Positions 8,565-63,075 of a DNA stretch of 64,000 nt are shown piece after piece. Under the pieces are notes generated by a model. The model searched no databases. It was not told the DNA's origin and saw only the letters and a list, made by a program, of their open reading frames with translations. Positions within the stretch are counted from its first letter, which is position 1. Every line of letters starts with the position of its first letter. Source of the stretch: a virus. Location: IMG/VR virus record IMGVR_UViG_3300022213_000237, positions 1 to 64,000 of that record. One strand, written 5' to 3'. Made by a program: the position numbers and the translations under genes.

Positions 8565-8625
8565 TTATCAAGCCTCTAAGAAACTTAGTAGCTGCTCGAT
8601 CTTACAGCCTTAATCTTTTGGGAGT

Positions 8626-9621
8626 ATGATTCGAACGGGAACAAATGGCGTCTTCCAGAGTGATGTCCTCATTCGCGCCGCCATTATTGCCGGTATAGAC
8701 GAGATTAGACAGAAGCCGTGGCTGCTTGATTACGTCTTTTCTTGGTTACCGAACGATCCGTTAACATCAAAAACGTACGGGGCGAAAGAATTACAAGAAG
8801 CCAAAAATTGGTTCCTGTCGACCGAAGTAGCGGTTGTAATGGCCTATCGTACAGACCAACCTCAATTGCCGTGCATTGGAATCGAGCTAGTTGAGTCCAC
8901 AGAAGCTCATGCTACCATAGGCGACGTACATTACGAGACTTCAGAAGACGTTGCCGCGAACGAGGTAGCTATTGAGCCCGACAAAATCGTAGGCCCATTT
9001 ACCCCCAAAGCTTACGATATCGAAACGGGTATTGTAACTATGCCCGATAATCAGTCGACGGCCAAAGTTTTTGCCGGCATGTATATTTTTGATACGGTAG
9101 CAAATAGAGGGTATCAGATTTCGGAAGTTCTGTCCGACCAGACCTTTAAACTCGACGACGGGACTAAAGCCAATTTTACGAATTGCTATATAGCTGGGCG
9201 TGATGCGTTCTGGACCATACCTCTATACAGTATGGTTTTTCGCGAAAGCTACCGCATGCGGTGTTTCGTTACTGCTAGTCCCATACATTTGAGTTTTCTC
9301 TACTCCGTATTGTTGTTCGTGTTGATGCGCGGAAAGAAAGACCTCCTTGAAGCCAGAGGATTTGAAAACTTTACCATAGCTGGTTCTGGGTTTGCTGGCG
9401 CACAAATGCCCAATAATCCTGAGATGATCTTCACGAGAGACATTACGGTTACTGGCATTGTGCGTCAATATTGGCCAGGTAATCCGGGACGTAAGCTTGA
9501 TGGAATCCTGGTGGATTCGTCAATTATGGATAGTGGTAAATCGCCGAATGGTATAGCGGAATTCGTTTCCGAACAAGGTTGGGAATTGGAAGATGATCAA
9601 TTTGGAGCCCTTAGGGAATAA
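8626..9621 (+). CDS. Putative tail terminator/completion protein
   Basis: LPCIGI...E....IGD pattern, late motif at 8612, position two genes before the sheath. Confidence 0.5.
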   Translation: MIRTGTNGVFQSDVLIRAAIIAGIDEIRQKPWLLDYVFSWLPNDPLTSKTYGAKELQEAKNWFLSTEVAVVMAYRTDQPQLPCIGIELVESTEAHATIGDVHYETSEDVAANEVAIEPDKIVGPFTPKAYDIETGIVTMPDNQSTAKVFAGMYIFDTVANRGYQISEVLSDQTFKLDDGTKANFTNCYIAGRDAFWTIPLYSMVFRESYRMRCFVTASPIHLSFLYSVLLFVLMRGKKDLLEARGFENFTIAGSGFAGAQMPNNPEMIFTRDITVTGIVRQYWPGNPGRKLDGILVDSSIMDSGKSPNGIAEFVSEQGWELEDDQFGALRE

Positions 9622-9668
9622 GCGCGCCAGAGCCCCAATCTTGGAAAAGAGTTTTAGGAGAATACTTC

Positions 9669-11432
9669 ATGTCTGATATCAAGACCCCAGCCGATGTAGC
9701 CGCCGAGTTAACAAAAGCACTTGGCGAGAAGATCGACACCTTGAAGAAAATGGAACTTCCCCAGTCGCCCGAAAAGGCTGATGGCGGTCAAGAATCATCG
9801 GGTTCAATCCCCGCCATGCCTAAACAAGCAGGCGGAACCACTGATGCCGAAATGGCGAAAGATGAAGTCGTTTCTGTGAAAAGGGCAGAATGCCCTGGTT
9901 GTGGCAAGAAATCTGCCCAAGAGCATGAAGGTGTCTCTGGACGCAAGATGGTAGCCATTTGCGGTAATTGCAAGAAGCGAAACGTCGGCAACGTAAAAAA
10001 GATGGACCTTCCTGCGTCGCCAGAAGCGGCTACCGGCGGCGAGATCGCAAAGAAATCAGAACTCGACGCTCTAGATTTTGCCCAGGCGCTCAGCAAAGCC
10101 GTGGTGGAAAAAATCGCGGGCGTGCGCGAACAACTTGAGAAAATGGAGCGACTCGAAGCCGCAGGTAACGAGGATTTAGCTAAAGGTCTTAAGTCCAAGG
10201 GCGTCAAAAAGAATATTGGGTCACTGCCCAGCAATACGCCATCGAATAAGCAAATTGCGGATGGCGATCCTAACAAATCGCATCCAATGCCTAAGTCGGT
10301 ATTCGATATCATGAATAAGGGCGAAGGTAAATTCCTGCCCTGGGCTAAAGGCACTAAGAAGCCAAAAGTAGGAAAAGAAGTAGAAGCTGAAGGCAGTGGC
10401 GGAAGTGATACCACTAAGCCCGGACCTTCACTTCAAAAGGACGCCCTTCCTGTAGCCAAGCCACCGAAGATGCCAGCTCTTAAGCCCGCAGGTGTGCCTG
10501 GCGCCAAAGCTGGTGACGCACCCAAGGCTCCTAAGGCGCCAGGTGCCCCCGGACAGACTGGTAGTACGATGAAAATGGAACTTCCTCAGTCCCCTGAAAA
10601 GGCGGGTGGTGGTGACATGGCAAGTGGCTCTGTGCCCGCTATGCCCAAACAGGCCGGTGGAACCACCGACGCAGAGATGGAAAAAGAGGAGATGTCTCCG
10701 GAAGAAACCAACATCGCCGAAGAATCGTCTGCAGAAGAAACACATATGGGTAAGGATGAATTGCCCCAAACTCCTGAAAAAGCGATTGGCGGTCAAGAGT
10801 CTTCTGGATCTATTCCCGCTATGCCTAAACAAGCAGGAGGAGCTACTGACGCGGAGATGAAGAAGAACGCTTTGCCTCCCAATCACGCAAGTCCCGTATT
10901 TGCGGTCCATGCTTCTGTTTTCGGTAATAAAGCCGCACCTGGAGACCCTCACGGCGGCAAATCAGGATACTTAATCACCCAGGCTCTACCTAAACTTAAA
11001 CCTGCGGCTGCGGGTATGCATACCGTGGGTCAAGATGGACCTCCTACGCCGGCACCTGGCGATATGGGTGCTGGTAACAAGACAGTTAACCTTCGTTCGC
11101 CGGTCGGAAAATCCGAAGACATGGCTAAGGGCGTGTTTTCTCAGGCGGCACAACATTCAGACCCTTCTTTTGCGTCGCATGCGGCCAGCAAAGCTGCGGC
11201 AGCGCCAGCAGCAAAACCTGCACCCATGGGTGGGCCGAACGATGCCCGCGCAGCAGCGTTTTCAGCGGCATTAGCGGGAGAATTTCAACCCAAAGCTCCT
11301 ATTAAGACCGGACTCGAGCTGGCACATCCTAAAGCCGCCAACTTGCCGAAATTCGGCAAAGCTGAACTGGATAGCGTCAAGTGTCCAGGATGTAAGCAAG
11401 GCATGACCCTTTGTAAGTGTGGATCCAAGTAA
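9669..11432 (+). CDS. Low-complexity, repeat-containing protein (internal head/scaffold-like)
   Basis: K/A/P/G/E-rich; three 37-aa repeats; CxxC pairs; AGGAG RBS; late motif at 9637. Confidence 0.6.
   Translation: MSDIKTPADVAAELTKALGEKIDTLKKMELPQSPEKADGGQESSGSIPAMPKQAGGTTDAEMAKDEVVSVKRAECPGCGKKSAQEHEGVSGRKMVAICGNCKKRNVGNVKKMDLPASPEAATGGEIAKKSELDALDFAQALSKAVVEKIAGVREQLEKMERLEAAGNEDLAKGLKSKGVKKNIGSLPSNTPSNKQIADGDPNKSHPMPKSVFDIMNKGEGKFLPWAKGTKKPKVGKEVEAEGSGGSDTTKPGPSLQKDALPVAKPPKMPALKPAGVPGAKAGDAPKAPKAPGAPGQTGSTMKMELPQSPEKAGGGDMASGSVPAMPKQAGGTTDAEMEKEEMSPEETNIAEESSAEETHMGKDELPQTPEKAIGGQESSGSIPAMPKQAGGATDAEMKKNALPPNHASPVFAVHASVFGNKAAPGDPHGGKSGYLITQALPKLKPAAAGMHTVGQDGPPTPAPGDMGAGNKTVNLRSPVGKSEDMAKGVFSQAAQHSDPSFASHAASKAAAAPAAKPAPMGGPNDARAAAFSAALAGEFQPKAPIKTGLELAHPKAANLPKFGKAELDSVKCPGCKQGMTLCKCGSK
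9750..10865 (+). repeat. Three dispersed 111-nt coding repeats (9750-9860, 10575-10685, 10755-10865)
   Basis: (M/D)ELPQ(S/T)PEKAxGG..SGS(I/V)PAMPKQAGGxTDAEMxK. Confidence 0.9.
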
Positions 11433-11480
11433 ACACTTTTAAAACCTAATCTACCGCACAGGTAACAGGAGAATTTCCAA

Positions 11481-15505: not shown

Positions 15506-15545
15506 AACCCTGGTGACCTCAAAAGGTTCCCAGGGTTTTTTATTT
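15506..15545 (+). terminator. Intrinsic terminator
   Basis: AACCCTGG...CCAGGGTT hairpin followed by a T run. Confidence 0.75.
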
Positions 15546-15548
15546 CAA

Positions 15549-15565
15549 GATCTTACGGATACAAG
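15549..15565 (+). promoter_or_regulatory. GATC-N5-G-N-TA promoter-like motif (example of about 17 copies)
   Basis: GATC ttacgGa TACAAG, then 7 nt to ATG 15573. Confidence 0.6.
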
Positions 15566-15572
15566 GAACACC

Positions 15573-15806
15573 ATGGATATTAAATTCAATGCCGTCGAAG
15601 GACTGGAGACAATGGGAGTTCACGACATTTTAGTCGATGGGAACCATGCCGGACGTATGGTCATGTGGCGCAAAATGAATAAAGGTGTAGTCGAGATGGA
15701 AGGTTGGGCCGTTACGGTAGGAGTCGTGGGCAAAACCTTTACCAAAAACGATTGCGCCACCAAAGAAGAAGCAATGTCGTTTGTAAGGAAGATGCTCCAG
15801 CCTTAA
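15573..15806 (+). CDS. Hypothetical protein
   Basis: ATG after GATC-class motif, downstream of terminator. Confidence 0.55.
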   Translation: MDIKFNAVEGLETMGVHDILVDGNHAGRMVMWRKMNKGVVEMEGWAVTVGVVGKTFTKNDCATKEEAMSFVRKMLQP

Positions 15807-15821: not shown

Positions 15822-15906
15822 GGGTGAAACGTGGCCAATGGTGGCCCAGCGCGCTGTAAACGCGCCGCTCTTCGGGGCACGGTAGGTTCGATTCCTACTT
15901 CACCCA
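15822..15906 (+). tRNA. trnY: tRNA-Tyr(GTA)
   Basis: GGGTGAA/TTCACCC acceptor; GCGCG-CTGTAAA-CGCGC; long variable arm; TTCGATT. Confidence 0.85.
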
Positions 15907-15974
15907 ATTGTTCTCTGACATAGTCATGTAAATGACGTAGAATACTATGACCCCACGTTCCAACGTGGGTATTT

Positions 15975-16048
15975 TGGCGACTGGCGCAATGGTAGCGCAG
16001 CCGGTTCTGACCCGGAAGGTTTTCTAGGTTCGAGTCCTAGGTCGCCAG
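15975..16048 (+). tRNA. trnQ: tRNA-Gln(CTG)
   Basis: TGGCGAC/GTCGCCA; loop TTCTGAC; TTCGAGT. Confidence 0.85.
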
Positions 16049-16052
16049 CTAT

Positions 16053-16123
16053 TCCGAGATCGTTCAACGGTAGGACGGGCAGCTGTTTACCGCTTCATCT
16101 GGGTTCAAATCCTAGTCTCGGAG
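16053..16123 (+). tRNA. trnN: tRNA-Asn(GTT), atypical anticodon arm
   Basis: TCCGAGA/TCTCGGA; loop CTGTTTA. Confidence 0.75.
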
Positions 16124-16136
16124 CACAAATGTAATC

Positions 16137-16209
16137 GGGGCTGTAGCTCAATTGGGAGAGCAAGACCTTTGCAAGGTCGAGGTTGAGAGTTCGAGTCTCT
16201 CCAGCTCCA
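16137..16209 (+). tRNA. trnA: tRNA-Ala(TGC)
   Basis: GGGGCTG/CAGCTCC with G3.U70; loop TTTGCAA. Confidence 0.9.
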
Positions 16210-16213
16210 TCTC

Positions 16214-16285
16214 GCCGTCATAGCACAATTGGTAGTGCAAACGCCTGTAAGCGTGAGGTTGAGGGTTCGACTCCTTCTGACGGCA
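16214..16285 (+). tRNA. tRNA-Thr(TGT)-like with 6-nt anticodon loop
   Basis: GCCGTCA/TGACGGC; ACGC-CTGTAA-GCGT; normal D and T arms. Confidence 0.65.
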
Positions 16286-16554
16286 AACGATCAACACGTT
16301 ATAATTTGTACATATAAAGGACGTCTCATCAGCCTTTGTCTAGACAGCTTTCTTCGGTCTGTATACGGGCCGACGCGGGTCCGGCCCTCGATAATGAACC
16401 GGTGGAAGCGTAATTCGACTATTACGACACGTAAGCACTTCGTGAAAATATTGTGCATCCCTGGTATGTGAGGGGTAATCAGTCTACTACGAGCTTGGCC
16501 ATCGGGCCGGGAAACGGGTAGAACACATACAGCTCCGTAGACGTACGGAGTCTT

Positions 16555-16627
16555 GCGACTGTAACCATGATGGTTCAGGTGACGCTTTGAAACAGCGTAA
16601 ATCTTGGTTCGATTCCAAGCGGTCGCA
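16555..16627 (+). tRNA. trnF: tRNA-Phe(GAA)
   Basis: GCGACTG/CGGTCGC; ACGCT-TTGAAAC-AGCGT. Confidence 0.8.
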
Positions 16628-16631
16628 CTTT

Positions 16632-16706
16632 GGTCTCTTAGTGAAATTGGATTTATCACGTAAGTCTACGAAACTTAAATTCTGGGTTCAAGTCCCAGAG
16701 AGATCG
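16632..16706 (+). tRNA. trnR: tRNA-Arg(ACG)
   Basis: GGTCTCT/AGAGATC; TAAGT-CTACGAA-ACTTA. Confidence 0.85.
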
Positions 16707-16724
16707 TGTTGTAAGAAGGAATCC

Positions 16725-17089
16725 GGGGCTGAATTGGATTCGACGGAGGAGAGTGAAGAGTAGATGCGAGTCGTGGTTGGTCATCGGCCACGTAAAAAGA
16801 AGACCAAAAATAAACGCCAAGTCTAACGACGTGGTTCCTGCGTGGATGATTGCAGCTTCGGCTGCCGGCATCCAAGCCTTCGCCTAATAAGCGAAACAGG
16901 ATGTGGATGGAAGAGGATTCCGAGTATTCCATCTGCATAAACCACACGGAATGTAGTGGAGAATGACTGCCTGTCGACTCTCCACCAAATTTAGGCAGGC
17001 AAACGTCGTACCAGCCTCGGGTAGAGGAAACACTCGTAGTATCTATTTGTAGCATCTTGCGGACCCCGGTTCGATACCGGGCAGCTCCA
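16725..17089 (+). ncRNA. ssrA: tmRNA
   Basis: 5' GGGGCTGAATTGGATTCGAC; 3' GACCCCGGTTCGATACCGGGCAGCTCCA; ATAAAC-GCC resume at 16816; tag ends TAATAA. Confidence 0.92.
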
Positions 17090-17413
17090 CTTTTAGGTTC
17101 GCTCAGGGCTTGTCGAAGGGGCGATTAAATCGGACGATAACTCCCTTCCGAGCCATTTGTTTTTGCTGGCTTTGAAAACCAGCTGGTGGAGGCACCTTGA
17201 GTGCCCTTCGTCCCGGCGAAGTAAAATAGTCCTTTAGCCGGGAGCGTTCAGAGCCGGGTGTTCTCACCGGCCTGATGTGGAGATAGTCGGGCATCATGTT
17301 AAATCCATGGTGTGTCTGAATTATCCGCGCACGGTATAATACGGGCCGTGGGCGAACGCCTGATAAGCCACTACGGACGGCTGTGCACAGCTACTGTTCC
17401 TACCGCATTATTT

Positions 17414-17487
17414 GCCGGATTAGCATAATGGTAATGCAACCGCCTTTGAAGCGGTCTTTCATCTGGGTTCGACTCCTAGATCCGGTG
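17414..17487 (+). tRNA. trnQ: tRNA-Gln(TTG)
   Basis: ACCGC-CTTTGAA-GCGGT; TTCGACT. Confidence 0.85.
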
Positions 17488-17506
17488 CTATAGAGTAATG
17501 AAGTCA

Positions 17507-17577
17507 CGAGGAGTGAGGTAATGGTAGCCGCCCTGTTTTGGATACAGGTTGTTTGGGTTCGAGTCCCAACTCTTCGA
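17507..17577 (+). tRNA. trnP: tRNA-Pro(TGG)
   Basis: CGAGGAG/CTCTTCG; CCTGT-TTTGGAT-ACAGG. Confidence 0.85.
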
Positions 17578-17793
17578 CTTGCTATGGGCCCTTCGTAACC
17601 GGGTCGGCTGAGAGCTGCAAACTCTCAGCGTGTTTTTTGGTTGGTGCTGCCTCATTGAACTGGGTCGGTCCATTGACGGCGCCAAGGAGCTAGTACTCTT
17701 TGGCACCGTTTGTTTTTATAATTGTGCGAGGATCCGAGGCTAAATACTCGGGGCGTGGCGCGGGTTGATAGGTCCCGTAATCCTCAATTTTCT

Positions 17794-18081
17794 ATGAAAT
17801 TTAAACACAAATACGAACGGCTGCCTGTATCTTTTACCCCCCAAGAAAAAGAAGTCGAGAGCGGCTTAACGCAGACTGGTAGAATGTTTACCTGCTTTGC
17901 GTGTGAAGACGTTACCGGCTTTCGTGTCGAGATGCCAGATACCCCAGAAGTCCCATGTTGTTCTGATGAATGTAGGGACGTAATCAAATCCTGGAGTGTC
18001 ACGATAGATCTTCCAGCTACACCATTAGATGGGATTGAAGTTGCAGATAATGAGCGATCTCCATCTGGAGAGAATGGTTGA
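17794..18081 (+). CDS. Small Cys-rich hypothetical protein
   Basis: CFAC...CCSDEC; start chosen after the structured leader. Confidence 0.5.
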   Translation: MKFKHKYERLPVSFTPQEKEVESGLTQTGRMFTCFACEDVTGFRVEMPDTPEVPCCSDECRDVIKSWSVTIDLPATPLDGIEVADNERSPSGENG

Positions 18082-18775: not shown

Positions 18776-18990
18776 GCCAAAAATCATTAGTGTACCGACT
18801 TCGCAAAAGGGCTGAGATTCGACGTCAAATAAGTACACGCAAAAGCGTGCAAGAGGGCGAGCCCGACCGCATTGCCGACCTTCTTGAAGAAGCGGCAGCT
18901 AGAATAGAAGCGCTTGAGGACGATGTATGTCATCACGAAGACGAAGAAGACTGTGTGATGTACAGATCTGACGATACAACCGATAGATGA
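18772..18990 (+). CDS. Hypothetical protein
   Basis: ATGA overlaps in operon. Confidence 0.55.
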   Translation: MSQKSLVYRLRKRAEIRRQISTRKSVQEGEPDRIADLLEEAAARIEALEDDVCHHEDEEDCVMYRSDDTTDR

Positions 18991-19670: not shown

Positions 19671-20090
19671 GTGATATTTCAACAATTTCTGGCCTATGGA
19701 TTTTTTGGACTAATAGTCGAGAATCTTTTCACCGGCATCTACAGCCTTCTCCACAAAGACAAAAGAGCAACCACAACATCCTACCTTTGGATGGTTGTGG
19801 TGTACGGTCTAGGTGGTCTGCAAATGCAGGCACTCCACGCTTTGAGATGGCACCCATTACTTCTTGCTCTGGTCTACGTGCCCGTCATTTACGCCAACGA
19901 ATTCTTATGGGGTTTGTTCCTCGATAAGGTCTTGGGTAAGTGTCCTTGGAATTACGGCAAGGGCCGACACACCATCATGGGTTACATCCGCCTCGATTAC
20001 GCCTTCTTTTGGTTCCTCCTCGCCCTTGGTTTTGAGCTTTGTGTTGACCGTATCGAGCGTGTACTCAACTACATCTCACTACATAATTGA
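19671..20090 (+). CDS. TMEM229/CmpB-like membrane protein
   Basis: YG..G...E..FTG, S.LWM..VYG, CPWNY...G.IRLDY..FW. Confidence 0.7.
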   Translation: MIFQQFLAYGFFGLIVENLFTGIYSLLHKDKRATTTSYLWMVVVYGLGGLQMQALHALRWHPLLLALVYVPVIYANEFLWGLFLDKVLGKCPWNYGKGRHTIMGYIRLDYAFFWFLLALGFELCVDRIERVLNYISLHN

Positions 20091-20111
20091 TCTTCTCGAT
20101 AGAGCCACAAC

Positions 20112-20300
20112 ATGACAAAGAAAAAGAAACAAGAAAAGTCGGAAACTCTTCTCGAACTGGTTGGCGGCATTTACGTTGTTGAGCGCTTTCCCGACGGCAG
20201 AGAATCTCGTTCTGAGATCGACGGCAAGTTAGTGCTTGAATTACTCATGATGCATTTAGAGAGTGCGCTCGAAATAGAATATTCAAAGCTTAAAAAGTAA
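20112..20300 (+). CDS. Hypothetical protein
   Basis: GATC-class motif at 20089. Confidence 0.5.
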   Translation: MTKKKKQEKSETLLELVGGIYVVERFPDGRESRSEIDGKLVLELLMMHLESALEIEYSKLKK

Positions 20301-20311: not shown

Positions 20312-20383
20312 ACGCCCATCGGTTAAAGGTGAAACCAGCAGGCTTATATCTTGCGACTCTTGGTTCGAATCCAAGTGGGCGTA
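20312..20383 (+). tRNA. trnI: tRNA-Ile(TAT)
   Basis: ACGCCCA/TGGGCGT; GCAGG-CTTATAT-CTTGC. Confidence 0.8.
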
Positions 20384-20387
20384 CTAA

Positions 20388-20461
20388 CGATCGATAGCAA
20401 TCGCGGTGAATGCGCCTGCTTTACACGCAGGACCAGAAGAGTTCGACTCTCTTTCGATCGA
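20388..20461 (+). tRNA. trnV: tRNA-Val(TAC)
   Basis: CGATCGA/TCGATCG; CCTGC-TTTACAC-GCAGG. Confidence 0.8.
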
Positions 20462-20467
20462 CAATAT

Positions 20468-20539
20468 TGCGGACTGGAGAAACGGCTATCTCGCGATCCT
20501 CATAAGTTCAAGAATCCGGTTCGACTCCGGAGTCCGCTA
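20468..20539 (+). tRNA. tRNA-Met(CAT), initiator-like with weak anticodon stem
   Basis: 1:72 mismatch; loop CTCATAA; TCCGG-TTCGACT-CCGGA. Confidence 0.7.
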
Positions 20540-20544
20540 TCTTA

Positions 20545-22834: not shown

Positions 22835-22856
22835 TCACACTGCTAAAGGCTGAGCC

Positions 22857-52064: not shown

Positions 52065-53906
52065 TTACATTACCTCTGCGCGTGTGGTCGCGGTCTGAAT
52101 CCATGAGGTTTTGACAATGTTTACTACGCCATCGTCGAAACGCACGGGCGTGTAGCTGTCGCAGTCGGGTCCAACTACTTGGAACGTAAGGCCGGAGCCC
52201 CGTACACGGCGACGCTCTCCGGGTGAGAAAGATGCAGGACCTCCAAAGAGTTTGGCCACCAACAACGAAATTAGCCCCACGATTGCCATGAATCCGCCCC
52301 AGACCGCACTTGCTACCAGGAACTTGGTATCGCCGTCTAAGGTATTGAAGTTCTCAAAAATTGTGTCCATGGACACTTCTTAGCGGGAGATCGTAGGCCC
52401 AATCCAGGTTAGGGTGTCGTTCTTTAGCTCCACTAGCTTGGTGTTTTGGAGCATGCCGATAATTCGGTTGTAGGATTGAATGTCGAGAGTATTCATCATT
52501 CTCGCGTACAGGTGTCCATTCGGAATCGAACCCAGGGATTGAATTGCTTCCCCTACTGCCGCCACTAATTGGAGTGCCGCGTTTTGTTGTTTAGTCATGA
52601 TTTCTTTCTATCAAAGAATTGGGGATCTTGTCAAGGGAAATAAAGAACGGGTTTATCTTCATTGGGATCTTTTATACGATTCAGCTCTTGAACCCATTCA
52701 TTTAGCGTCTTATCTGCTTGGATAACGTTGATGTCGATTAACTCCGGAGCATCTACATCCAGCGCTTTGCGTTGTTCGACCAATTGTTGGATGTCGTAGC
52801 TCAGACCCTCTCGGTCATCGGCATCGAGGTTTTTCCATTGGAGCATTCCCGCCGCGATTCGCGCCACTGCCATCGGGTAGTTCGTAACGAACGTTAAGGT
52901 ATTCAAGGGTAATAACCCTTTAAACCTGGCGGGCGCTCAAGGCCCTCAAAGCGGACGGCGCGAACAAGCTTTAAATCCTCAAGACCTGTCACAATAACGG
53001 TTTCTAATACTTGGCCGGTTTCATCGAGCGGGAAGAATTCATTGTGATTGGTCATGAGCAGGAATTTCATGTACTCGCTTTCGACCTCGTACACAGAGTA
53101 GACCCCGTCGTTGACGAGACACTTGACTTCGTACGGCAGCTTGTACAGACCCTCGTTCATGGTTCCTTGCCCAGTGCTTCTTCAGCGGCATCACTCAAGA
53201 TAGAATCAACACTCTCTATTGCGTCTTCAAGGGAGGTGAATCCGTCAATAACGTTCATTACCGTGATGGCGTACTGTCTCATCATTTCTTTCTGGGTTTT
53301 GGTAAGGTTTTCGGTCATGCGAAGAAGATGTTCGTTCAGTAGCGTACGCGCTGCGGCTAGGCGTTGTTCTATGTAGTAGTATTTTCGGGGCATTAGAGAC
53401 CTTTCAAGACCGGTACAGGATCTTCACCGCGCATGGCTATAGCCACAGACGCATAGGCCCGTACAATCTCTCGATTCTTAAGCTTACTCTTAACAGGTAG
53501 GGTCGCGGTCAGTACGGCAATAAGGAATTCAGCCGATGCACGCTCTAGGCGAAAATCATTAAGAAGAACATCAACCCCCTCAAATTCTCCGTTCCTTAAC
53601 AGAGGATCGATGAGATTGTAGACTTCTTGAATAGCTTCGTCAGTTTTACCGTCTCTATCCAACCCCAGGGCAGGAACCCACGACACACAATGTTCTAGCT
53701 TATCCACCGTTAATCTCCGTATTTAGAATTTCTTCCAAATCTCGTAAATCCTTGGTCACAGTTTCTAGTTCCAGCACTTCTCGAGCAACTTCGAGTGGCA
53801 TAGTTTGTTTTTCAATCCACGCAGCAAAATTGCTTCCAATTACTAAGTTCTGAACCATAAGGCGAGCCCTTTGGACCGTCTCATACCAACCATCTATTTT
53901 AGCCAC
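52065..53906 (-). other. Cluster of small hypothetical genes
   Basis: Overlapping ORFs in operon. Confidence 0.5.
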
Positions 53907-54550: not shown

Positions 54551-55177
54551 TTAAGAATCGAAGCCGAAAATCATACGCACGTTTTCGCCGCCGTATTTGG
54601 TAGCAAGCTCTTTAACTGCGGCAATAAAGTCATCAAGGCCATCGGGTGCGTCCCAAGAGGTACGCACGTGCGTGGCGTCGCTTCGTGTGGCGAATTCATC
54701 CTCTTCGACGACAACGACACCTGGCCCTGCGATGTCCCCGCTCCAACTCGTGGGCATGATTCCAGCACGCAATGCCCTGTAGGCGGGGACATCCAGCACT
54801 CCATACTGGGTTCGGCGCGGTCGCGGGTGCGCGAGGATTTCTGCGAAAGTAGCATACCCTTGGCTATGGTCACCTAGGTCGTGACCATCGATTTGATCAC
54901 CTTCGTCGTCCCACTCCGGCTCCACATATTCAAAGTCTTCAGGAAAGCCGCGATCCGAGGTAAGTGGCGCAACTGGATCGAAGGTTTTAATTCCCGCAAA
55001 ACCATAGCCGTTACGAACGTCGGCCAGCCACGCAAACCAGTAGTAATTGCGGTCACGACCATATTTGAACTCCCCGCCCACATCTTTGTTTGTCTTGAAA
55101 TCGTACTTAGCGGTTTCGACATCAATCCATTTGTTGTCTTGCTTGCGTTGTACTATGTAGTGAATGTCTGTTCCCAT
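54551..55177 (-). CDS. Conserved phage hypothetical protein
   Basis: MGTDIH...RNY..FA.LADVRN...RG.P...VR.IFGFDS. Confidence 0.65.
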   Translation of the reverse strand: MGTDIHYIVQRKQDNKWIDVETAKYDFKTNKDVGGEFKYGRDRNYYWFAWLADVRNGYGFAGIKTFDPVAPLTSDRGFPEDFEYVEPEWDDEGDQIDGHDLGDHSQGYATFAEILAHPRPRRTQYGVLDVPAYRALRAGIMPTSWSGDIAGPGVVVVEEDEFATRSDATHVRTSWDAPDGLDDFIAAVKELATKYGGENVRMIFGFDS

Positions 55178-55198
55178 GATTTATCCTTTATCTGTAGA

Positions 55199-55894
55199 TC
55201 AAGAACCCGAACCCAATCGTCCCGCACCAGCACCCAGTTTGCCTTCGGTGCCGAGACTAATGGATTGACCTGCGGCACGACCCGCAGCACGTGCACCCGC
55301 ATCAAACCCACTACGAGCGACTCGTTTTCTGGTACGGAGATTGGAGGCAAACCAGCGTTCGACCGCCTCGTCGTTAGAGGCAATGCGTGCCAACGCCGTG
55401 CTCTTGCCGTCGGCGGCAGCCTTCGCCTTAAACTCTTCGCTGTCTTTCTTCAAGCGTTCGGCAAGGGCATCGACCACACCTAGCCGGAAGTTATTGCACC
55501 ACGTACGACCGTAGCTATTGTTGGCTAATTTGAGTAGCCGGTCTGTCTCGTTGATGAGCCAGCGATACATGTATCGCACCGTGTCCGCATCTGATTTGCG
55601 ACCCACGATTGAAAGCCCTTCAGTACCAAAGACGTAGACCTTACATCCGTTGGCTCTAGCCAGTACGGTCGCGAGCCTCGACTTCCAGGTCGAAGTAGAG
55701 TTATCAAGCAGGTCGTTTCTGAAGTCTTGGATTTGCTCCTCTTGGGTGCCGACTTCCAGAGTAGCGGCATCAAGACGGTATTCGTCCATGATACGCTGGG
55801 CGAGGGACATGGCGGCCGCCGCCTCGTGAACGTTGTCGGACTTGGAGAGGCGTAGTAGCTTCTGGACTCGGTCAACGGCTTCGGCTAAGTTCAT
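55199..55894 (-). CDS. DUF2786-domain protein
   Basis: RVQKLLRLS.S.N.HEA.AA...AQ.IM; own sigma70 promoter (TTGACA at 55930). Confidence 0.8.
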   Translation of the reverse strand: MNLAEAVDRVQKLLRLSKSDNVHEAAAAMSLAQRIMDEYRLDAATLEVGTQEEQIQDFRNDLLDNSTSTWKSRLATVLARANGCKVYVFGTEGLSIVGRKSDADTVRYMYRWLINETDRLLKLANNSYGRTWCNNFRLGVVDALAERLKKDSEEFKAKAAADGKSTALARIASNDEAVERWFASNLRTRKRVARSGFDAGARAAGRAAGQSISLGTEGKLGAGAGRLGSGS

Positions 55895-57045
55895 GGCTCA
55901 CTTATACCATTAAAGAGAATCGCTTGTCAAGTTCTTAAGCGGCTCATTTCTTCACCACACACCAGTCGGCGTGAATCGACTTAGCTTTCTCGGCTCCGCA
56001 AACGCACTTAGGCTTGAATTCGTAGCGAAGCATACGCGCCTCTTTCCATGTTTGTGATTCGTTCCCCGGCTCCCACAACCACTCGGCGAAAGCTTGTAAC
56101 TCTTCGGGGGTTACTTCTGACATCATGGATGCGGCTCCGTTTTAAAGTTATCCCGATTTAGAGCGTCATGATCTCTAGATTTTGTCGTACCGGAACATAT
56201 CCTCTTCAGCACAGTCTTTCTCTGCCGCCGCAACATAAGCACGGAAGGCTTTGACCATGTGGGCGTATATTTGGTCATACTCTACGTCATCCACTTGATA
56301 CTCGTGAATAGAGTTAGTGAGTATATCCATTAGCTCGCGAACTACGGTGTTCTCCATGCCACTAAAATGGTCGCGTGGAGTCACGATAACTGTGTGGCCG
56401 GAATCGATTATTTCCTTCGCTACGGCAGCCGCTTCTTCGTAAGTTTTGTGCAAAGAGCCGTATTCTTGGCTTCCTACGCGCACTTCGTATATGGTTTTGA
56501 TTTTCTTGGTCATAATTCACCGTATTTTCTTCGCGTAGTCCCAATCAGGGCAGATCCTGTAGCGAGCGAAAGGGTCGTTTTGGAGCCGCAGCTGGCCCAC
56601 AGTCACGGTCCCATTAGCCAACGCTTTCGCGTCGGCGGCACGGGATGCGGCTTTCTCTTCAGAACGCTTAGTGGGTTTGAAGTGCTTTGGTTTCCGTTTC
56701 ATGGATAGTCTATATGGAGTGGATCAATTTTTACGAAATAGTTCGGAGTACAAATAAATTCTCAGCTCGTTTGTGTCCATATTAGCCAATTCGCTTGTTT
56801 CTTTAACGGTTAGCGATCTTTTGAACTTACGTTCTAATTCAGCCGTCAGCCAATTAAGAATCGCAGACCTGTGGCCACGGCGCTCGTATCGCTGGTTCTC
56901 TAAATCTTCGGTGTGGCGCCTTCTGAATTCTTCTAGCTCTAATACAATCCAAATCCCGTAAAAGCCTATCACACATACAAGCTGTTTTACCGGCTCAACA
57001 TCTGAATTAATGAGAGCGATAGTCGCAACGATGGCGATGAACGGC

Positions 57046-59373
57046 TTAAGCAGCATTTTGGACCCCCTCGTCAGACTTCACATATTCGAAGGTATAGCCG
57101 CCAGCGGTTTTATTTTTACCAGTCAATACCTGAGAGATCGAAGTTCTGTGGATGCCCAGAGCGAGCGAAGCTTTCTTTACGCTATTGTATATTGTTTTGT
57201 TTTGGTGACAATATATCTTCACACTTTTAGATTGACTAAGAGTCTGACCTCGGCATTGTGGGCATGTCGTATTGTTACGGGATCTTTTATTAACGTTTCT
57301 AAAACTATTTTCAAATTCGTGCCCAGTCGGACACCTCATCTTAAATGCTGTTGTAGTGTCTGTATAGACCCCAATCCTTTGAATATTCTTTTGTTGTAAT
57401 ACCAAATCTACTTCTTGTTCGGATAACGGGGCATTAGGAATAAAATACAATTCTTTTATCAAATCAGGATACTTTCTATTAGCGATATGATAAACAGCTT
57501 TGTCGTTAGACGATAGTAAGTCTTTGACCGATCTATATTTTTTAAGAATAGAATAGACCTCATCTTGTGTTCTTTGACGAATACGGTTTGGAAAGACTTC
57601 ATTTACCAAGCCTTCATGGTATTTGCAGGCTGCAACATAGGCACCTGGTGACAGCGCTTTTGCTTCTTTAAGAGTGGGGTGCTTCTGTAATTCTTCTTTA
57701 CAGTTTTCTCGATTATTTCTCCAATGTCCCGGCTCAACAGACAACTTGCTCCAGTTAGGTAGAATGGTATACAGTTTTTTTAAAAAATCATTACATGAAG
57801 CGTTCTTGGACCATCGGTACCATCTAACGCTTTCTTGAAGACCCTCAGGAAAATCACTCTTAGTTGCTTTATAATCTTCAAACTTACCCGCCTCTTCTTT
57901 CTCCTTCCTCAATTTTCGTGCAAACACCAAAATCTTCTCTTTAGTCTCCTCAACCCGCGCAAACTCCTCAGACATCCATCGCTTAGTCTCAGTAAACGTG
58001 CTCCAGGCATAGGGTTCAAATTCACCGTGGTCGACATGCTTAAGGTCTTGGAACGTATAAAACCGAGGTAGATTGACTTTAGGTGGTGTTTTAGGTCGTT
58101 CGTTCTTTTCTCCGTTACCGCGTTGCTCACGAACAACCCGCTCGATGTCACCAGCAACCGGAATAGCTCTATGCTTCCATGAACCATCGTAAGCTTCAAA
58201 TACCTTCCGCGTACCCATGGCCATCACAAAGGACATAACGTGGTGAGTTAAAGGCGCTGTTGCCGTGGGAGTGACTTTGATGAAGAGTTTTTCTTCTTTG
58301 GGTTTCTTCTCGGAGACGCGAACCAACCTACATAGAGCCTGGAAGTTCTTGTCAGGATTCATGGTGCAGCTAATGTCTACGATATTAAACAGTTCAGTGT
58401 AGTCAAAACCCAAAGTTGCTCGATTCACAACAATCAAAACCGGTTCGGGGCCGGTTTTAAACTGCGTGACATTAGCGCTGTCTTTGTCTGAATCTGACGT
58501 CGACACCAATGCATCGATACCAAAGCTTTTGAGCACCCTCTTGGCTGCATACGCCTGACTTTGTCGGTTACAAATGACCAGAGTCTTTTGCAAATGTCGT
58601 TCAAAGAACGCCTTGGCGGCATTACCCAATACACCCTTATTCCAGTTCGGAGTCTTGACGGGATGTTTAAGCCGTTTTACAAACAAATCACATAGTTTAG
58701 CAAAGCTATCAGTGAGTGCTAACCTAACCTGCTCGTCGGTCATCTCGACTTCTTGTCGTAGATCCTCGTCGCCGTTGTAATCGTCCATCGTAAACGGTAG
58801 CGCCGTCTGTACTAATTCAATGTAAGGGTCCTTCAATACTTCATAATCAAGCAATTCGCATGCCGTTACACAGCGCATGGGGAAGTTCTTAGCCTTAATG
58901 AAGGGGCTGGGAGTACCGGTAAGACAAAGAACCTTGGCGCGTGGATTCTTCTTAATGAATCTCTGTACCATTCCGTCTTCTTTGTCCGTGTCTTTGGCAA
59001 AGAAAAAGTGGTGCGCTTCGTCTACTACGATAAGTCCGTAATCGGTCGGAATCTTCCTCATTTTGAAGAAGTGTGGAATTGCGACCTGGATTTGTGCGTC
59101 TACTGGCGCACACGTCAATTCCGCAAAAGAATATTTCACTTCCAGGCGCTCAAGACGTTCGTAGAACTGCTCTCGCAGTACGGTTTGGCCGTGGGCAAAC
59201 ACCAACACTTTGGATGTGGGATTATCGCGCAAGAAGCGTTTAATAATCTCAATTGCCATGTTGGTCTTGCCGGCACCGGGCGTGGCAGCAAGTACGGCAC
59301 CACCAGAGGGGTCAGTTTTTATAAGTTCGTAGACTTCACCAACTAGCTTATCTTGGTAACTGTAATCAGTCAT
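57046..59373 (-). CDS. SF2 (DEAH) helicase fused to homing-endonuclease-type DNA-binding modules
   Basis: ATPGAGKT, DEAHH, LTGTP, Q..CR..R; C-terminal CP.GH...CPQC and NUMOD1-like HTH; TTGACT-17-TATAAA promoter. Confidence 0.8.
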   Translation of the reverse strand: MTDYSYQDKLVGEVYELIKTDPSGGAVLAATPGAGKTNMAIEIIKRFLRDNPTSKVLVFAHGQTVLREQFYERLERLEVKYSFAELTCAPVDAQIQVAIPHFFKMRKIPTDYGLIVVDEAHHFFFAKDTDKEDGMVQRFIKKNPRAKVLCLTGTPSPFIKAKNFPMRCVTACELLDYEVLKDPYIELVQTALPFTMDDYNGDEDLRQEVEMTDEQVRLALTDSFAKLCDLFVKRLKHPVKTPNWNKGVLGNAAKAFFERHLQKTLVICNRQSQAYAAKRVLKSFGIDALVSTSDSDKDSANVTQFKTGPEPVLIVVNRATLGFDYTELFNIVDISCTMNPDKNFQALCRLVRVSEKKPKEEKLFIKVTPTATAPLTHHVMSFVMAMGTRKVFEAYDGSWKHRAIPVAGDIERVVREQRGNGEKNERPKTPPKVNLPRFYTFQDLKHVDHGEFEPYAWSTFTETKRWMSEEFARVEETKEKILVFARKLRKEKEEAGKFEDYKATKSDFPEGLQESVRWYRWSKNASCNDFLKKLYTILPNWSKLSVEPGHWRNNRENCKEELQKHPTLKEAKALSPGAYVAACKYHEGLVNEVFPNRIRQRTQDEVYSILKKYRSVKDLLSSNDKAVYHIANRKYPDLIKELYFIPNAPLSEQEVDLVLQQKNIQRIGVYTDTTTAFKMRCPTGHEFENSFRNVNKRSRNNTTCPQCRGQTLSQSKSVKIYCHQNKTIYNSVKKASLALGIHRTSISQVLTGKNKTAGGYTFEYVKSDEGVQNAA

Positions 59374-59421
59374 AAGGTATTTATACCGTACCGACTGGAT
59401 CTAGTCAAGGATCTTCAACTT

Positions 59422-61800
59422 TCAACGAGAAGAGGTTCCCTTGCCATCACAGGTTTGGCATAAACGAGAACAACCATGTGAGCCATCGAACCATGTGCCC
59501 TCACCGCGACACTCCTTACAATACCGGCGGTGCTTCGCCGTATTGATTTGAATCTGGCCAACCACGTCTTCAATGCAGTCGTGCAATAGACGACGAACAT
59601 CGTGCATGTTGTCGCCAAACTCGGACGCCTTGTCGTGCGCCTTGTCGAGGAGCTTTAGAAGCGCGTCGAGGTTCTGGTTTTCTTCGACTTTAGTTTTCAT
59701 GTTTCCTCCGGTCTACGTGCGCCATCAAGGATTTCTAATCCGGTCTTAATGGCATCAATAAAGGTCCAACCCGCTGGCGTCTTGGCTTTCATACTCGCGG
59801 GACGATTAATATTCTCGTAGGCGCGATAGAAGCGGTCAAACTCTACGTCTCGGGCCATAAACTCTTTGACGTCTTCGGGTTTCACCCCGCCACCAGGAAG
59901 TAGGCAACTGCTGAATAGGAAAGAACCGCAAAGAGAACAGCAAGCACAGCTAAGTCGATAACGTTGCGTAGGTTCATACCTCTAAACTAGCCTGTGGATC
60001 TGTTTCGGACCATAAATCTCCAGACTCGAACTCACGATCAGCTACAGCCCACCACAAAACACCTTGTTCTTCGCCAACTAATTTTTGGGTAAGCCAATCC
60101 TTTTGCTGGGTGTTTACGAAATAAATCGTTTGTCCAATTGGAGGAATCTTATAAGGCATGTCTGACATATCGTACAATTTGGTGGTGAATTGTCCATTTT
60201 ATCGGACAATCAAGACAAACAGGCAATAGAGGTCGTCGTTCATTTGCTATCCCCGATCGCTTTGGCGATGGCGGTGGCAATGGCATCGTCCAACAGCGAA
60301 CTGCCGCCACGAGTCTCATCTAAAAGAGATGGACACTCTCCCTTGACGAGCGCCACCAACTCCTCAAGGCACGCAAGCAAATCCGGTGCGGCGGCAATGA
60401 GGCGCGCGTTGGCTTCGTCCGGGTCTCGAATCGCTGCGACGGTTCCGTAAGCCGAGACCACATCCCATCGAAGCATTCGATGAAGGTCTACAGCCACGGG
60501 CCCGCTTCCCAAAATCACCTTCGACACCGCTTTCCACGGCCCAGGCGTAAATTTTGCGCTCACAGCACACCGCCTCTCAACTTAGCCACGGCCACCACCT
60601 GCTGGGCGGCGCGTACCCAGTTCTCGGGCGTAAGGCTCCAGGCCTCGCACGCGATTCTCATCTTGCACAATTCATTGAATCGGGTGTTAGTGGCGTCGGC
60701 AGGCGCAAATTTTGCGCTCATGGCCTTCCATTCCTTGCGTAGTGAGGAGAACTCCGCGCGTTGCTCAAGCAGCAACACCATCTCGTTATAAGCGGTTTCG
60801 ATCGCGTTCTCGTGTTGGAACTGAAGGGCTTCTAGCTCTGCTGGATCGTTGTAATAAAGTGTCATGGTGTAGTTATACAGGATCTTGTGGGGTTGTGTCA
60901 AGCTCTTCTTCCCATGCGGGATTGATTATCTCCATGTCGAGAAAATCCTGTAGCATCGCAAAGGAACTGACCGTGTATCCAATCTTCATGTGAAATTCGG
61001 CATACTCTCGTTGGGTGAGAACCTTCTTCGTGTGGTAGTCGAGACGTAGCTTATTCAAGTCGATTACGCCACCGTCCACAAGCTTGGAGAGCAGTGGGTC
61101 GGGGACAAAACGCTGTTGACCCTTTTCGTCGAAATACGTCGTATAATGGTCTTTGCCGACCTTGACCATGACGTATACCGGCGATTCTGGTACTTCCGCT
61201 TTGGCCATCTTGTACAGAGCCATCACAAAGTTCACAAAATTGTCTTCATTGTAGAAGGGGTCGGCGTCAGTGCCACTGATCTTCTCGTACATCTCCGCAT
61301 CAAAGCCGTATAGCGCATTCATGAAAAACTGACCAGGCCGTTGACCGTTTAACGCCATTTCTAGCTGTGTCCATTTGTCTTGCGTGGCTTCAAACCAGGC
61401 TTTGACTTCGCTGAGAGTTTTCATTTGTTTCTCGTCCTGAATGCGTGTATGACTTCGGTCTCTAACTCGGTGCGGAAGGAGCAAAAGTCGCCGTCAATGG
61501 AGTATTCACGTTCCTGCTGTTTCCTCACAACGGAAAGCGTTTTGAGGAGAATGATGATTGGTATGAGGGTGAACACCACAATCACGATATCGACGAAGTT
61601 CATACTTCCTCTACTAGATCAATTACGAGTTCGTCGTCAAGTTCCTCGGCAATCATTTCTCCTAATGTGGCCGCACGTTTTGCGCGTTCATTTAATTCGA
61701 TCATGATCGCCATTGGAGACCAACCCATGGCGCCCAGCACTCTAACGGCTTCGTCGAAAGTAACTTTGTCCATGGTCAATGCATAGCTTGTGATCGTCAC
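59422..61800 (-). other. Cluster of small hypothetical genes, including an FTPGPW...ANARLIAAAPDL family gene (60240-60563)
   Basis: Packed ORFs; sigma70 promoter at 60896-60901 gives start 60865. Confidence 0.5.
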
Positions 61801-61836
61801 TTGACTTCCGATAAAATGTTTTGTATAAAGGTACCC

Positions 61837-62142
61837 ATGACCGCATATCTCACCGGAAATTCTCTTTCTCTCGGTATTAGTCGCATTTCAAGTGGTTTTC
61901 TCGTCGAGGACGTTAACTCGGAACGGGCACGCCCAAATCGCGGGTACCACGACTACAATCGCAGACTTACGGTCTGGGGCTTTGCTAAGATAAAAATTGA
62001 CGCCCTAGCTGCGGAACAGCTTGCGGACGTCACCAAGCCTTTGTATATGTGGCAACGTGAAGTGTCTCGTATAACCTACGTTGTTGGTGATGTAACCTTC
62101 ACCGAAATACTCATCAACTACGGTTACGATTCGGGGGATTAA
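61837..62142 (+). CDS. Hypothetical early protein
   Basis: TTGACT(61801)-17-TATAAA-ggtaccc-ATG. Confidence 0.6.
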   Translation: MTAYLTGNSLSLGISRISSGFLVEDVNSERARPNRGYHDYNRRLTVWGFAKIKIDALAAEQLADVTKPLYMWQREVSRITYVVGDVTFTEILINYGYDSGD

Positions 62143-62145
62143 TCG

Positions 62146-62937
62146 TTACGGTACCTTAATTAGGTTTTCTACGAACGACCGATCTTCTTTGAAGATGGGT
62201 GTGACGTTGGGCACGTACCATTCAGAACGCTCAATATATACGGGACCTTCTATTTTGGAAAGGAATTGACCGTTCACAGTAATTTCAGCCCGTGCGGCCA
62301 ATTCTTTTCGGACCTTGCGTTTAACCACGACTCGACCGTCTTTGGTATGGGAATCTAGCGCCGCCCAGTTAAACCCCTTTTGGAAACACATCTCGTGCTG
62401 CTCGGCACGACTTTTGCCGTGTAGCTCTTTGGGAGAATACAGAGATTGCGCAAGCATGGCAAGGCTGTTACGGTTCCAATCTTGTTGCCGCCAGATAAAA
62501 TAATTGTTGACTTCGTGTTCTGGTAGAACAAAAGCGCGGGCATCGAATACAGCTTCTTTAACCACTGGTCCGGGGAAGAGTCGAGGACTGAGAGTTGTCA
62601 TCTTGGCAGAAGCAGTGGCAGCGGCTACAGACACCATCTTTTGTAGGTTGTTATCAAACCAAGGCGAGGTATCAATATCTTTGTAATTGACCAATAACAA
62701 CGAGATTTCGTCACTTTGAGTGTACGCCAATACCGTATTCTGGACTTGATCGCAGAGATGTTTGGCGACGTCATTCATGACTGCCATTAAGTCTTTGGCG
62801 TATGGGCGCGCCAAGCCTTTTGTCCAAGTATGGAAGGCTTTGCCGTCCAATCGAATAATCACGGGCAACCGGTTGGGGAGATAATGGCGTGAGGCGCCTT
62901 CATACCGTTTCATCCGGTCCCCGAGAGTATCTTTCAT
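62146..62937 (-). CDS. thg1: tRNA-His guanylyltransferase Thg1-like 3'-5' polymerase
   Basis: RLDGKAFH, YTQSDEIS, FDAR, YF.WRQ.D..RN. Confidence 0.92.
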   Translation of the reverse strand: MKDTLGDRMKRYEGASRHYLPNRLPVIIRLDGKAFHTWTKGLARPYAKDLMAVMNDVAKHLCDQVQNTVLAYTQSDEISLLLVNYKDIDTSPWFDNNLQKMVSVAAATASAKMTTLSPRLFPGPVVKEAVFDARAFVLPEHEVNNYFIWRQQDWNRNSLAMLAQSLYSPKELHGKSRAEQHEMCFQKGFNWAALDSHTKDGRVVVKRKVRKELAARAEITVNGQFLSKIEGPVYIERSEWYVPNVTPIFKEDRSFVENLIKVP

Positions 62938-63075
62938 GATTTGTTCGTATCTGACTGATCATGCTTCCAATCACGACATTCACGCCGAGAACGCTCTTTA
63001 CGTTGATCCTTAGTAGTATTTGCCTTAGTGGCTCCGTTAATGAGCTTAACTAACAGAACGTCACGGGTTTTAAGC

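Follow-up and report, generated by a model that had tools for sequence, protein, structure and literature searches.

A GATC-N4/5-G-N-TA element as a probable −35-less promoter class of Mx1-like myxophages

The element GATC-N4/5-G-N-TA, named class M here, recurs in front of gene starts in a stretch of 64,000 nucleotides (hereafter, the window) corresponding to positions 1–64,000 of the IMG/VR virus record IMGVR_UViG_3300022213_000237, the total length of which is 169,567 bp (G+C 48.5%). Judging from its sequence features, class M is real and conserved and probably works as a promoter class, and we consider, with a probability of about 0.6, that it corresponds to a phage-specific class of promoters devoid of a −35 box, proper to the Mx1-like myxophages and needing a phage factor. 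This reading draws on the element itself, its enrichment, its fixed distance to the start codon, the depletion of Shine–Dalgarno (SD) words behind it, its conservation and the presence of a sigma gene in the genome. The nearest named relative is Myxococcus phage Mx1 (OR576727.2; 169,621 bp; G+C 55.5%; PMC10720576), with 59.7% identity for the tail sheath protein, and its GenBank annotation was used over the whole genome as an independent comparison set. A near-identical record was absent from the phage collection (megablast with 4.2 kb of structural genes from the window), and IMG/VR scans queried with the sigma and with the sheath alignment returned no relatives; metagenomic relatives (L012–L020) were instead obtained by searching with proteins and looking up contigs, and conservation in these was judged on stretches of about 20 kb.

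A sequence-only reading of the window had listed 19 positions for such an element, all of which do carry it, and had proposed an enrichment check, which we ran against shuffled sequences at the level of the window. GATCNNNNNGNTA (GATC-N5-G-N-TA) occurs 19 times for 6.6 ± 2.7 expected, a count reached by none of 100 dinucleotide shuffles, and the composite GATC-N4/5-GNTA-N9-11-ATG occurs 14 times for 0.54 ± 0.77 expected. Over the whole genome, the spacing between GATC and GNTA has a sharp peak (N5: 52; N4: 33), all other spacings from N0 to N30 yielding 12–22 occurrences, and the peak is the same in Mx1 (N5: 40; N4: 20; N2, N3 and N6–N9: 1–11), where N1 (23) is a separate class. GATC is also the tetramer with the strongest intergenic enrichment (2.25-fold), and is under-represented overall (193 for 250 ± 12.6 expected). 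Among the N5 sites of the whole genome, 23 of 52 have an ATG 22, 23 or 24 nt past the G of GATC, and 8 of the 33 N4 sites have one at +22; given these offsets, it is the distance from TA to ATG that is constant, with GATC floating by one base. A second class one helical turn further out (GATC-N14-16-GNTA), hinted at by promoters of the sigma operon in Mx1, L016 and L017, was rejected, as it is without genome-wide support here and only weak in Mx1.

Base content was studied in a high-confidence set, in which a start codon lies 8–11 nt past TA and opens an open reading frame (ORF) of at least 35 codons (36 sites here, 24 in Mx1). Conserved bases are nearly limited to GATC, G and TA, the TA and the G at −14 being part of the pattern searched for and hence built in. 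Relative to the A of ATG, TA occupies −12/−11 (or −11/−10), G −14 and GATC about −23 to −20, and there is no information content upstream of GATC. In agreement with the claim of the sequence-only reading that no −35 box is present, the best match to a canonical −35 averages 2.58/6 at the 36 sites versus 2.43 at random positions, and 2.33 versus 2.37 in Mx1. The downstream half is no closer to the usual consensus: T at the sixth position of the hexamer (−7), expected of a TAnnnT −10, is found at 8 of 36 sites in this genome and at 7 of 24 in Mx1, and T at −15, expected of an extended −10 (TGn), at 4 of 36 and 2 of 24, respectively, T being the rarest base there. Could the element then be functionless and simply result from base composition, from stop codons or from the repetition of cassettes? 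Some pattern matches within coding DNA (e.g., 39723 and 57136 on the minus strand, 147118 and 163107 on the plus strand), which are probably due to chance, would go in that direction, but we give this explanation next to no probability in view of the excess of composites and of the N4/N5 peak shared by two genomes of different G+C. Moreover, a Mx1 homologue is known for only about 10 of the 36 class-M genes, which means that the element was not inherited along with the genes.

The start codons annotated in Mx1 were called without knowledge of the motif, and GATC lies 22 nt 5′ of 22 of them and 23 nt 5′ of 8, for a background of about 2.4 per offset. All 34 Mx1 genes with GATC at 21–24 nt start with ATG (34/34), and an SD 4-mer precedes only 5 of them (15%), versus 146 of the 216 other genes (68%; Fisher p = 5e-9). 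The fixed distance from a −10-like TA, the exclusive use of ATG and the depletion of SD words in Mx1 all point indirectly to leaderless messengers, a design that is visible apart from class M as well, in 17 near-consensus canonical promoters that abut ATG (see below). The sequence-only reading had stated that ATG often follows closely after the hexamer: this holds for 11 of its sites, with ATG at +22 to +24, but not for six others, which have longer leaders (26–58 nt), most of them with an SD word (20681, 20967 and 25020 on the plus strand; 8598, 38582 and 38815 on the minus strand). In Mx1, the geometry of GATC in front of the Clp-protease-like gene points to ATG 145240, i.e., 24 nt downstream of the annotated 145264, and the element might serve in this way to refine start calls in the Mx1-like phage family.

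The G and the TA have the geometry of a sigma-70-family −10 with the G of an extended −10, which would place the beginning of transcription at the AUG. According to the mechanism that we propose, transcription would start on the AUG or a few bases away from it, thereby yielding leaderless mRNAs at roughly one site in two, and just 5′ of a short SD leader at the remaining ones. As both halves of the element depart from the host-type consensus, a phage-made factor acting on the host core RNA polymerase would be needed, and GATC would be its upstream recognition or regulatory box. Since GATC is also found in the spacers of canonical early promoters, this box may also be used for switching from early to middle transcription.

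Several genomic contexts require a start signal at the level of DNA. First, an intrinsic-terminator-like hairpin followed by a T-run (15506–15545, plus strand; dG −19.9) stands directly 5′ of the N5 site at 15549–15575 (plus strand; ATG 15573, a 77-aa ORF followed by the tRNA cluster), as it does in Mx1 at 21168, 42766, 70196 and 96421. This arrangement is not general (under a strict rule, 2/36 sites here and 2/24 in Mx1 versus about 4.5% of random positions), and we take it as a supporting anecdote. Second, one GATC at 40161 is common to two divergent elements, an N5 site on the plus strand (40161–40186; ATG 40184) and an N4 site on the minus strand (40140–40164; ATG 40142), the two ATGs being 41 bp apart. 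Third, the element is found before RNA genes: on the plus strand at 16289–16305 (G-t-TATAAT, no ORF after it), within the cluster of tRNA and transfer-messenger RNA (tmRNA) genes and 5′ of tRNA-Phe, tRNA-Arg and the tmRNA, and in Mx1 before tRNAs without an ORF at 43247, 43361, 59067 and 62910. Finally, the gene following that for ribonucleotide reductase (RNR) has kept GATC-N4/5-GnTA in six phages, with no leader here (127542) and a leader of about 20 nt with an SD in Mx1, L018, L019 and L020; that the element is kept as the leader varies fits a DNA-level signal.

These contexts bear on the idea that the element works on RNA, whether as an SD-independent translation signal, as the operator of a translational regulator or as an endonuclease site trimming polycistronic RNA to leaderless mRNAs. 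Such a role would accommodate the fixed AUG distance and the depletion of SD words, as well as the frequent overlap of GATC with an upstream stop codon (TAGATC or TGATC). It is nonetheless very improbable, given that the element also stands 5′ of tRNA and tmRNA genes, follows terminators and is kept at orthologues that either lack a leader or have one of about 20 nt with an SD, that its conserved bases fall exactly at −14, −12 and −11 of sigma-70-type promoters, and that the same ATG distance recurs in canonical TTGACA/TATAAA promoters.

Regarding conservation, this genome and Mx1 both have the element in front of their orthologous genes for the phosphoesterase, the AAA ATPase, ThyA and the Clp-like protein, and it is found at orthologous replication genes in L016/L018, L017, L019 and L020, which are relatives identified through the sigma and a 73-aa protein presented below. 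In L012–L014, which are more distant and were anchored on the AAA ATPase, GATC-N5-GNTA is lacking, and GATTCGCTATCA, GATTCGTTACAG or yCCGTTATAG are found instead, followed by N6-7 and ATG; more generally, GATT is as frequent as GATC at the position of the box in the more distant relatives. Hence, a lack of conservation in the AAA-ATPase-anchored relatives was considered and rejected, the upstream box differing by lineage with the core retained. In L015 (38% G+C), anchored on the same ATPase and likewise lacking GATC-N5-GNTA, no motif is recognisable. As far as the sequence patterns go, the core G-n-TA-N10-ATG extends over the whole family, and the upstream box varies with the lineage. The claim of the sequence-only reading that the element represents a promoter class is thus supported, if indirectly, considering its sigma-70-family geometry relative to the start codon, its lack of a −35 and its conservation in Mx1 and four more relatives, and so is the claim that it serves mainly non-structural genes, to which RNA genes are to be added.

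The GATC-box class, as the patterns indicate, is one of three promoter classes, the one serving non-structural genes, and it coexists with canonical promoters on the one hand and with a YAATCT(T) motif on the other hand. A loose scan for the sigma-70 consensus between 38 and 58 kb (19 sites for 18.5 expected) was too loose to pick out real canonical promoters, which were recovered with a pattern based on leaderless geometry. In this way, 17 genomic TTGACA-N16-18-TATAAn promoters with a −10 ending 5–8 nt before an ORF-opening ATG were obtained, 11 of them in the window, and 10 of the 17 carry a GATC in their spacer. In Mx1, 38 minus-strand TTGAC-N16-18-TAnnnT promoters have SD leaders, and 34 of the 38 carry a spacer GATC, the position of which is variable and which is sometimes present in two copies; likewise, two canonical promoters of L013 have a double GATC. 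Two sites that the sequence-only reading had described as nested in sigma-70 spacers (44658 and 59398, minus strand) belong to such near-consensus −35/−10 promoters, namely TTGCCA-N18-TATAAA-N7-ATG at 44630–44669 and TTGACT-N17-TATAAA-N6-ATG at 59371–59408 (both on the minus strand, with a spacer GATC). The latter is a perfect leaderless TTGACT/TATAAA promoter in front of the gene (57046–59373, minus strand) for a helicase carrying an HNH endonuclease domain at its C-terminus (PHROG 16 and 20162). Also on the minus strand, two leaderless promoters have a spacer GATC (TTGACT-N17-TATAAA-N7-ATG at 42067–42105; TTGACA-N17-TATAAC-N6-ATG at 60864–60901), the GATC adjoins the −35 box in a third one (TTGACA-N18-TAGAAA-N6-ATG at 52596–52634), and it abuts the −10 in a canonical-type promoter (TTGACG-N18-TAGTAG-N7-ATG at 61601–61640). 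Further canonical leaderless promoters of the window, near the consensus TTGACA-N17-TATAAA and with 6–7 nt between the −10 and an ATG, are located at 42510–42548, 43832–43870, 55892–55930, 61801–61839 and 63318–63356. The label “middle”, which had been attached to class M in the sequence-only reading, derives only from the coexistence with these canonical promoters and is to be taken as tentative.

The third class, YAATCT(T), is found 5′ of the structural (late) genes not only of this genome but also of Mx1, L014, L016 and L017. In Mx1, 20 of 86 genes on the plus strand have it upstream, versus 3 of 164 on the minus strand. Several copies read CAATCTT-N6-ATG, which is a leaderless arrangement too. 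Its approximate positions in the window are 39–58, 2500–2521, 5105–5115, 8605–8628, 9625–9640, 11435–11445, 26105–26115 and 47755–47776.

GATC being the target of Dam, the sequence-only reading had suggested that the promoters might be gated by adenine methylation, e.g., through hemimethylation after replication setting promoter activity. The presence of GATC in or beside almost every early and class-M promoter and its under-representation elsewhere would agree with methylation switches, as would the precedent of Caulobacter GcrA, a sigma-bound factor through which promoter-embedded methylation sites are read (PMC7403470). Yet, searches of the phage genome for D12, N6_N4, T1-type Dam and C5 methyltransferases (PF02086, PF01555, PF05869 and PF00145) yielded no match, no methyltransferase is annotated in Mx1, and relatives have GATT at the same place. 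In addition, Dam is not known in Myxococcota. A host methyltransferase may act on GATC, and the near-universal GATC in early-promoter spacers suggests that something recognises this tetramer, but a DNA-binding protein explains it at least as well as methylation. Consequently, we grant Dam gating hardly any credence.

Which protein would read class M? The sequence-only reading had proposed a phage sigma or activator, and the genome does encode a divergent sigma-70-family protein; the YAATCTT class could be its target instead. This protein of 351 aa (genome positions 139647–140702) is syntenic with the “putative RNA polymerase sigma factor” of Mx1 (WNM70309). Its regions 2 and 3 are recognisable, a two-sequence profile matching regions 2–3 of RpoD with E = 5e-7, and the Pfam family Sigma70_r2 matches with 17.6 bits, below the 24-bit cut-off. 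Its AlphaFold model (mean predicted local distance difference test, pLDDT, 82.7) matches primary sigmas (Foldseek E = 1.7e-5) and aligns with residues ~90 to ~566 of the 613 of E. coli sigma-70 (Z ~12). As the C-terminus of the model corresponds to residue ~566, the protein ends after region 4.1, without the helix-turn-helix of region 4.2 that reads the −35; on the model, it thus appears to retain regions 1.2 to 4.1 and to be devoid of 4.2. More than 350 homologues of similar length occur on contigs of 160–180 kb, and among the 120 homologues listed, all have 334–373 aa except two (605 and 612 aa). The ORF following the sigma gene was considered as the missing region 4 and rejected, having neither a Pfam family nor a helix-turn-helix, and weak region-4 matches at 141725 and 161010 fall inside long ORFs.

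Another candidate partner is a helix-turn-helix protein of 73 aa encoded outside the window (genome positions 124198–124419, minus strand), directly 5′ of dnaE. It shares 57% identity with an unannotated ORF of Mx1 (157470–157685, minus strand), which partly overlaps the annotated coding sequence 157642–158070, and is present in 11 close metagenomic relatives. Its stand-alone model has a pLDDT of 68.8, and Foldseek returned no match at E ≤ 0.001. When predicted in complex with the sigma, the pair scores 0.68 (best of three controls: 0.00), with an interface at sigma residues 325–348, in the helices of its C-terminus; prediction runs share at least 65% of the contacts and the pLDDT of the partner is at least 78. 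For this score, the mark that we used is reached by 58 of 80 solved complexes and by 2 of 110 mismatched pairs. A two-piece sigma can be imagined on this basis, in which the 351-aa part, cut off after 4.1, would be completed by the 73-aa protein as a region-4-like DNA-binding subunit targeting GATC, which lies one helical turn nearer to the −10 than the usual −35 does; this subunit, when bound in canonical early spacers, would switch these promoters off, so that one factor would account for the early-to-middle switch. We regard this elaborate version as unlikely. More broadly, under the phage-factor reading, the leading candidate for reading class M is the 351-aa sigma, perhaps along with the 73-aa protein, to which we give somewhat less than an even chance, the host sigma assisted by a GATC-binding or sigma-4-displacing factor being the more tentative option.

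This last option can be turned into an explanation in its own right, according to which the holoenzyme of the host primary sigma, helped by a phage GATC-binding activator or a remodeller of sigma region 4, would read class M, and the phage sigma would serve the late YAATCTT promoters. It would follow the logic of T4 MotA/AsiA, P1 Lpa or P23-45 gp39. In P23-45, gp39 displaces sigma region 4, with the result that −35-dependent promoters are shut off, and the −35-independent middle/late promoters, of the extended −10 type, continue to work (PMC7403470). The position of the sigma gene in an operon headed by a class-M element, the ownership by late genes of a conserved motif with the strand bias reported above for Mx1, and the variable location of GATC in early spacers (34/38 in Mx1, 10/17 here), which is easier to reconcile with a distinct GATC-binding protein than with a contact by sigma, are additional points in its favour. 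Conversely, class M is a poor extended −10 for a primary sigma (T at −15 and at −7 in only 4/36 and 8/36 sites), and no activator was identified. Furthermore, the residue of sigma-70 that reads the extended −10 is H455, and H219 of the phage sigma aligns with it, in keeping with the invariant G at −14 but not with the late motif. We thus hold this explanation to be possible, albeit doubtful.

The reading of class M as phage-specific promoters served by a phage factor has to be weighed against a number of observations that speak against it. The sigma operon itself begins with a class-M element at 137548 that has an SD leader, which fits the sigma as a product of class M rather than as its reader; the YAATCTT class, to go by its distribution, is more widely conserved in the family and would be an equally good sigma target; and a box 7 bp from the TA of the −10 is not where sigma region 4 sits in known holoenzymes. 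The match of the 73-aa protein to Sigma70_r4 is sub-threshold (Pfam E = 0.04; 13.9 bits versus a 24.1-bit cut-off), and its complex score may reflect likeness instead of binding, inasmuch as packing of regions 4.1 and 4.2 is common in solved sigma structures. SD depletion is also less cleanly measurable here than in Mx1, because an independent annotation exists only for the latter: an SD-like 4-mer is present at 11 of the 36 high-confidence sites versus 12% of random windows, and some class-M genes may be translated from read-through transcripts as well. Lastly, we infer from sequence patterns that the element acts as a promoter, where transcription starts, when it takes place and which protein reads the box.

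In comparison with known systems, class M belongs to the theme in which an upstream box replaces the −35, of which it would be a variant. T4 middle promoters combine a MotA box at −30 with a sigma-70 −10, the host sigma being appropriated by AsiA and MotA. Class M resembles them in that a phage-specific upstream box takes the place of the −35, that canonical early promoters coexist with it and that non-structural genes are served. However, its box is a 4-bp palindrome centred at about −21.5, versus a 9-bp box at −30 in T4, its −10 half is without a conserved last T and many of its transcripts would be leaderless. There are no conserved bases from −35 to −24 at class-M sites that would indicate a MotA-type box, no search for MotA/AsiA homologues having been made. 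In phage P1, the inverted repeat bound by Lpa sits at −22, and the resemblance lies in a −10 that has no −35 but a short palindrome roughly a helical turn further upstream, the centre of GATC being about 10 bp 5′ of TA. Lpa-dependent late promoters are 11 in number, the site for Lpa being an inverted repeat of 9 bp (PMC10695390); class M differs by its sequence, its 4 bp instead of 9 and its non-structural rather than late genes, and no Lpa homologue was identified, though none was searched for. Relative to extended −10 promoters, including the middle-late ones of P23-45, class M shares the G at −14, the TA at −12/−11 and the independence from a −35, but has neither T at −15 nor a conserved T at −7, and has an added GATC box.

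Phage-encoded sigmas with promoters of their own include T4 gp55 (TATAAATA), SPO1 gp28 and gp33/34, and phiEco32 gp36. The Mx1-like phages are comparable to these, with a divergent sigma conserved across the family and phage-specific promoters, except that their sigma seems to keep regions 1.2–4.1 without 4.2 and that two non-canonical classes are candidate targets. As for leaderless mRNAs issued from promoters abutting the start codon, they are known for lambda cI from PRM and in Actinobacteria and Deinococcus. Class M is alike in that the −10 ends 6–7 nt before ATG, that there are no SD words and that ATG is the only start codon; it is unlike known cases in that three promoter classes of a single large virulent-type phage family use the design. 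In the literature, we found no paper describing class M or transcription in Mx1-like phages, and only the genome announcement for Mx1 (PMC10720576). The sequence thus predicts a three-class programme (GATC-marked canonical early promoters, −35-less GATC-box promoters and YAATCTT late promoters), widespread leaderless mRNAs and a conserved sigma without its −35-reading domain. As Mx1 shares these elements and can be propagated on M. xanthus, a model bacterium, these predictions are directly testable. If true, class M would represent a new way to replace the −35 contact, would provide compact host-orthogonal promoters for myxobacterial genetics, and would allow start-codon calls to be corrected in this phage family.

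The remaining class-M sites of the window are distributed over both strands. On the plus strand, they are found at 7925–7949 (N4; ATG 7947; a 93-aa DUF5658 protein), 18007–18031 (N5; ATG 18029; a calcineurin-like phosphoesterase, the Mx1 orthologue of which, at 50160, has the same element), 18965–18989 (N4; ATG 18987; 219 aa with a weak YfbR-like/HD match), 20089–20114 (N5; ATG 20112; a 62-aa ORF, then four tRNAs) and 22833–22859 (N5; ATG 22857). On the minus strand, N4 sites lie at 47726–47750 (ATG 47728; 122 aa), 52368–52392 (ATG 52370; 101 aa), 55175–55200 (ATG 55177; 208 aa) and 61771–61795 (ATG 61773; 57 aa), and an N5 site at 62935–62960 (ATG 62937; a Thg1-like protein of 263 aa). A variant without the G occurs at 56700–56725 (minus strand; ATG 56702, 23 nt past GATC). 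The sites at 7925, 16289, 18007 and 18965 (plus strand) and at 52389, 59997 and 61792 (minus strand) come in addition to those of the sequence-only reading, the one at 59975–60000 (minus strand) being an uncertain pattern match followed by an ORF of only 31 codons.

Class-M-like sites with longer leaders and an N5 spacing are located on the plus strand at 20681–20709 (ATG 20707, 26 nt past GATC) and 20967–21011 (ATG 21009 at 42 nt, with GGAG in the leader), and on the minus strand at 8562–8601 (ATG 8564 at 37 nt), 38525–38585 (58-nt SD leader to ATG 38527) and 38771–38818 (45-nt SD leader to ATG 38773). Another one, with G-g-TATAAA and a 53-nt SD leader (25020–25075, plus strand), stands 5′ of the structural block starting at 25073. 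Two sites of the sequence-only reading do contain GATC but are doubtful as promoter elements: at 23117–23132 (plus strand), the element overlaps an ATG and runs into a hairpin with a T-run, and at 40905–40917 (plus strand), the G directly precedes TA and no gene start is found at the class distance.

Some minor observations were made along the way. In two relatives, GATCC repeats are clustered in the divergent region between the GroEL/RNR and sigma/terminase operons (L016, 7840–7900; L017, 7569–7884), those of L016 consisting of three GATCC(A/G)CC copies, the first two followed by AAAT. In the window, the phage tmRNA (16725–17092, plus strand) was identified by both ARAGORN, with a tag peptide ending in AAGIQAFA, and Rfam (RF00023; 120.6 bits), and is surrounded by 13 clustered tRNA genes (15822–17578 and 20312–20630). 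Between the tmRNA and tRNA-Gln, a stretch at 17206–17282 (plus strand) matches the Pistol self-cleaving ribozyme (RF02679; 39.6 bits for a gathering score of 34.5).

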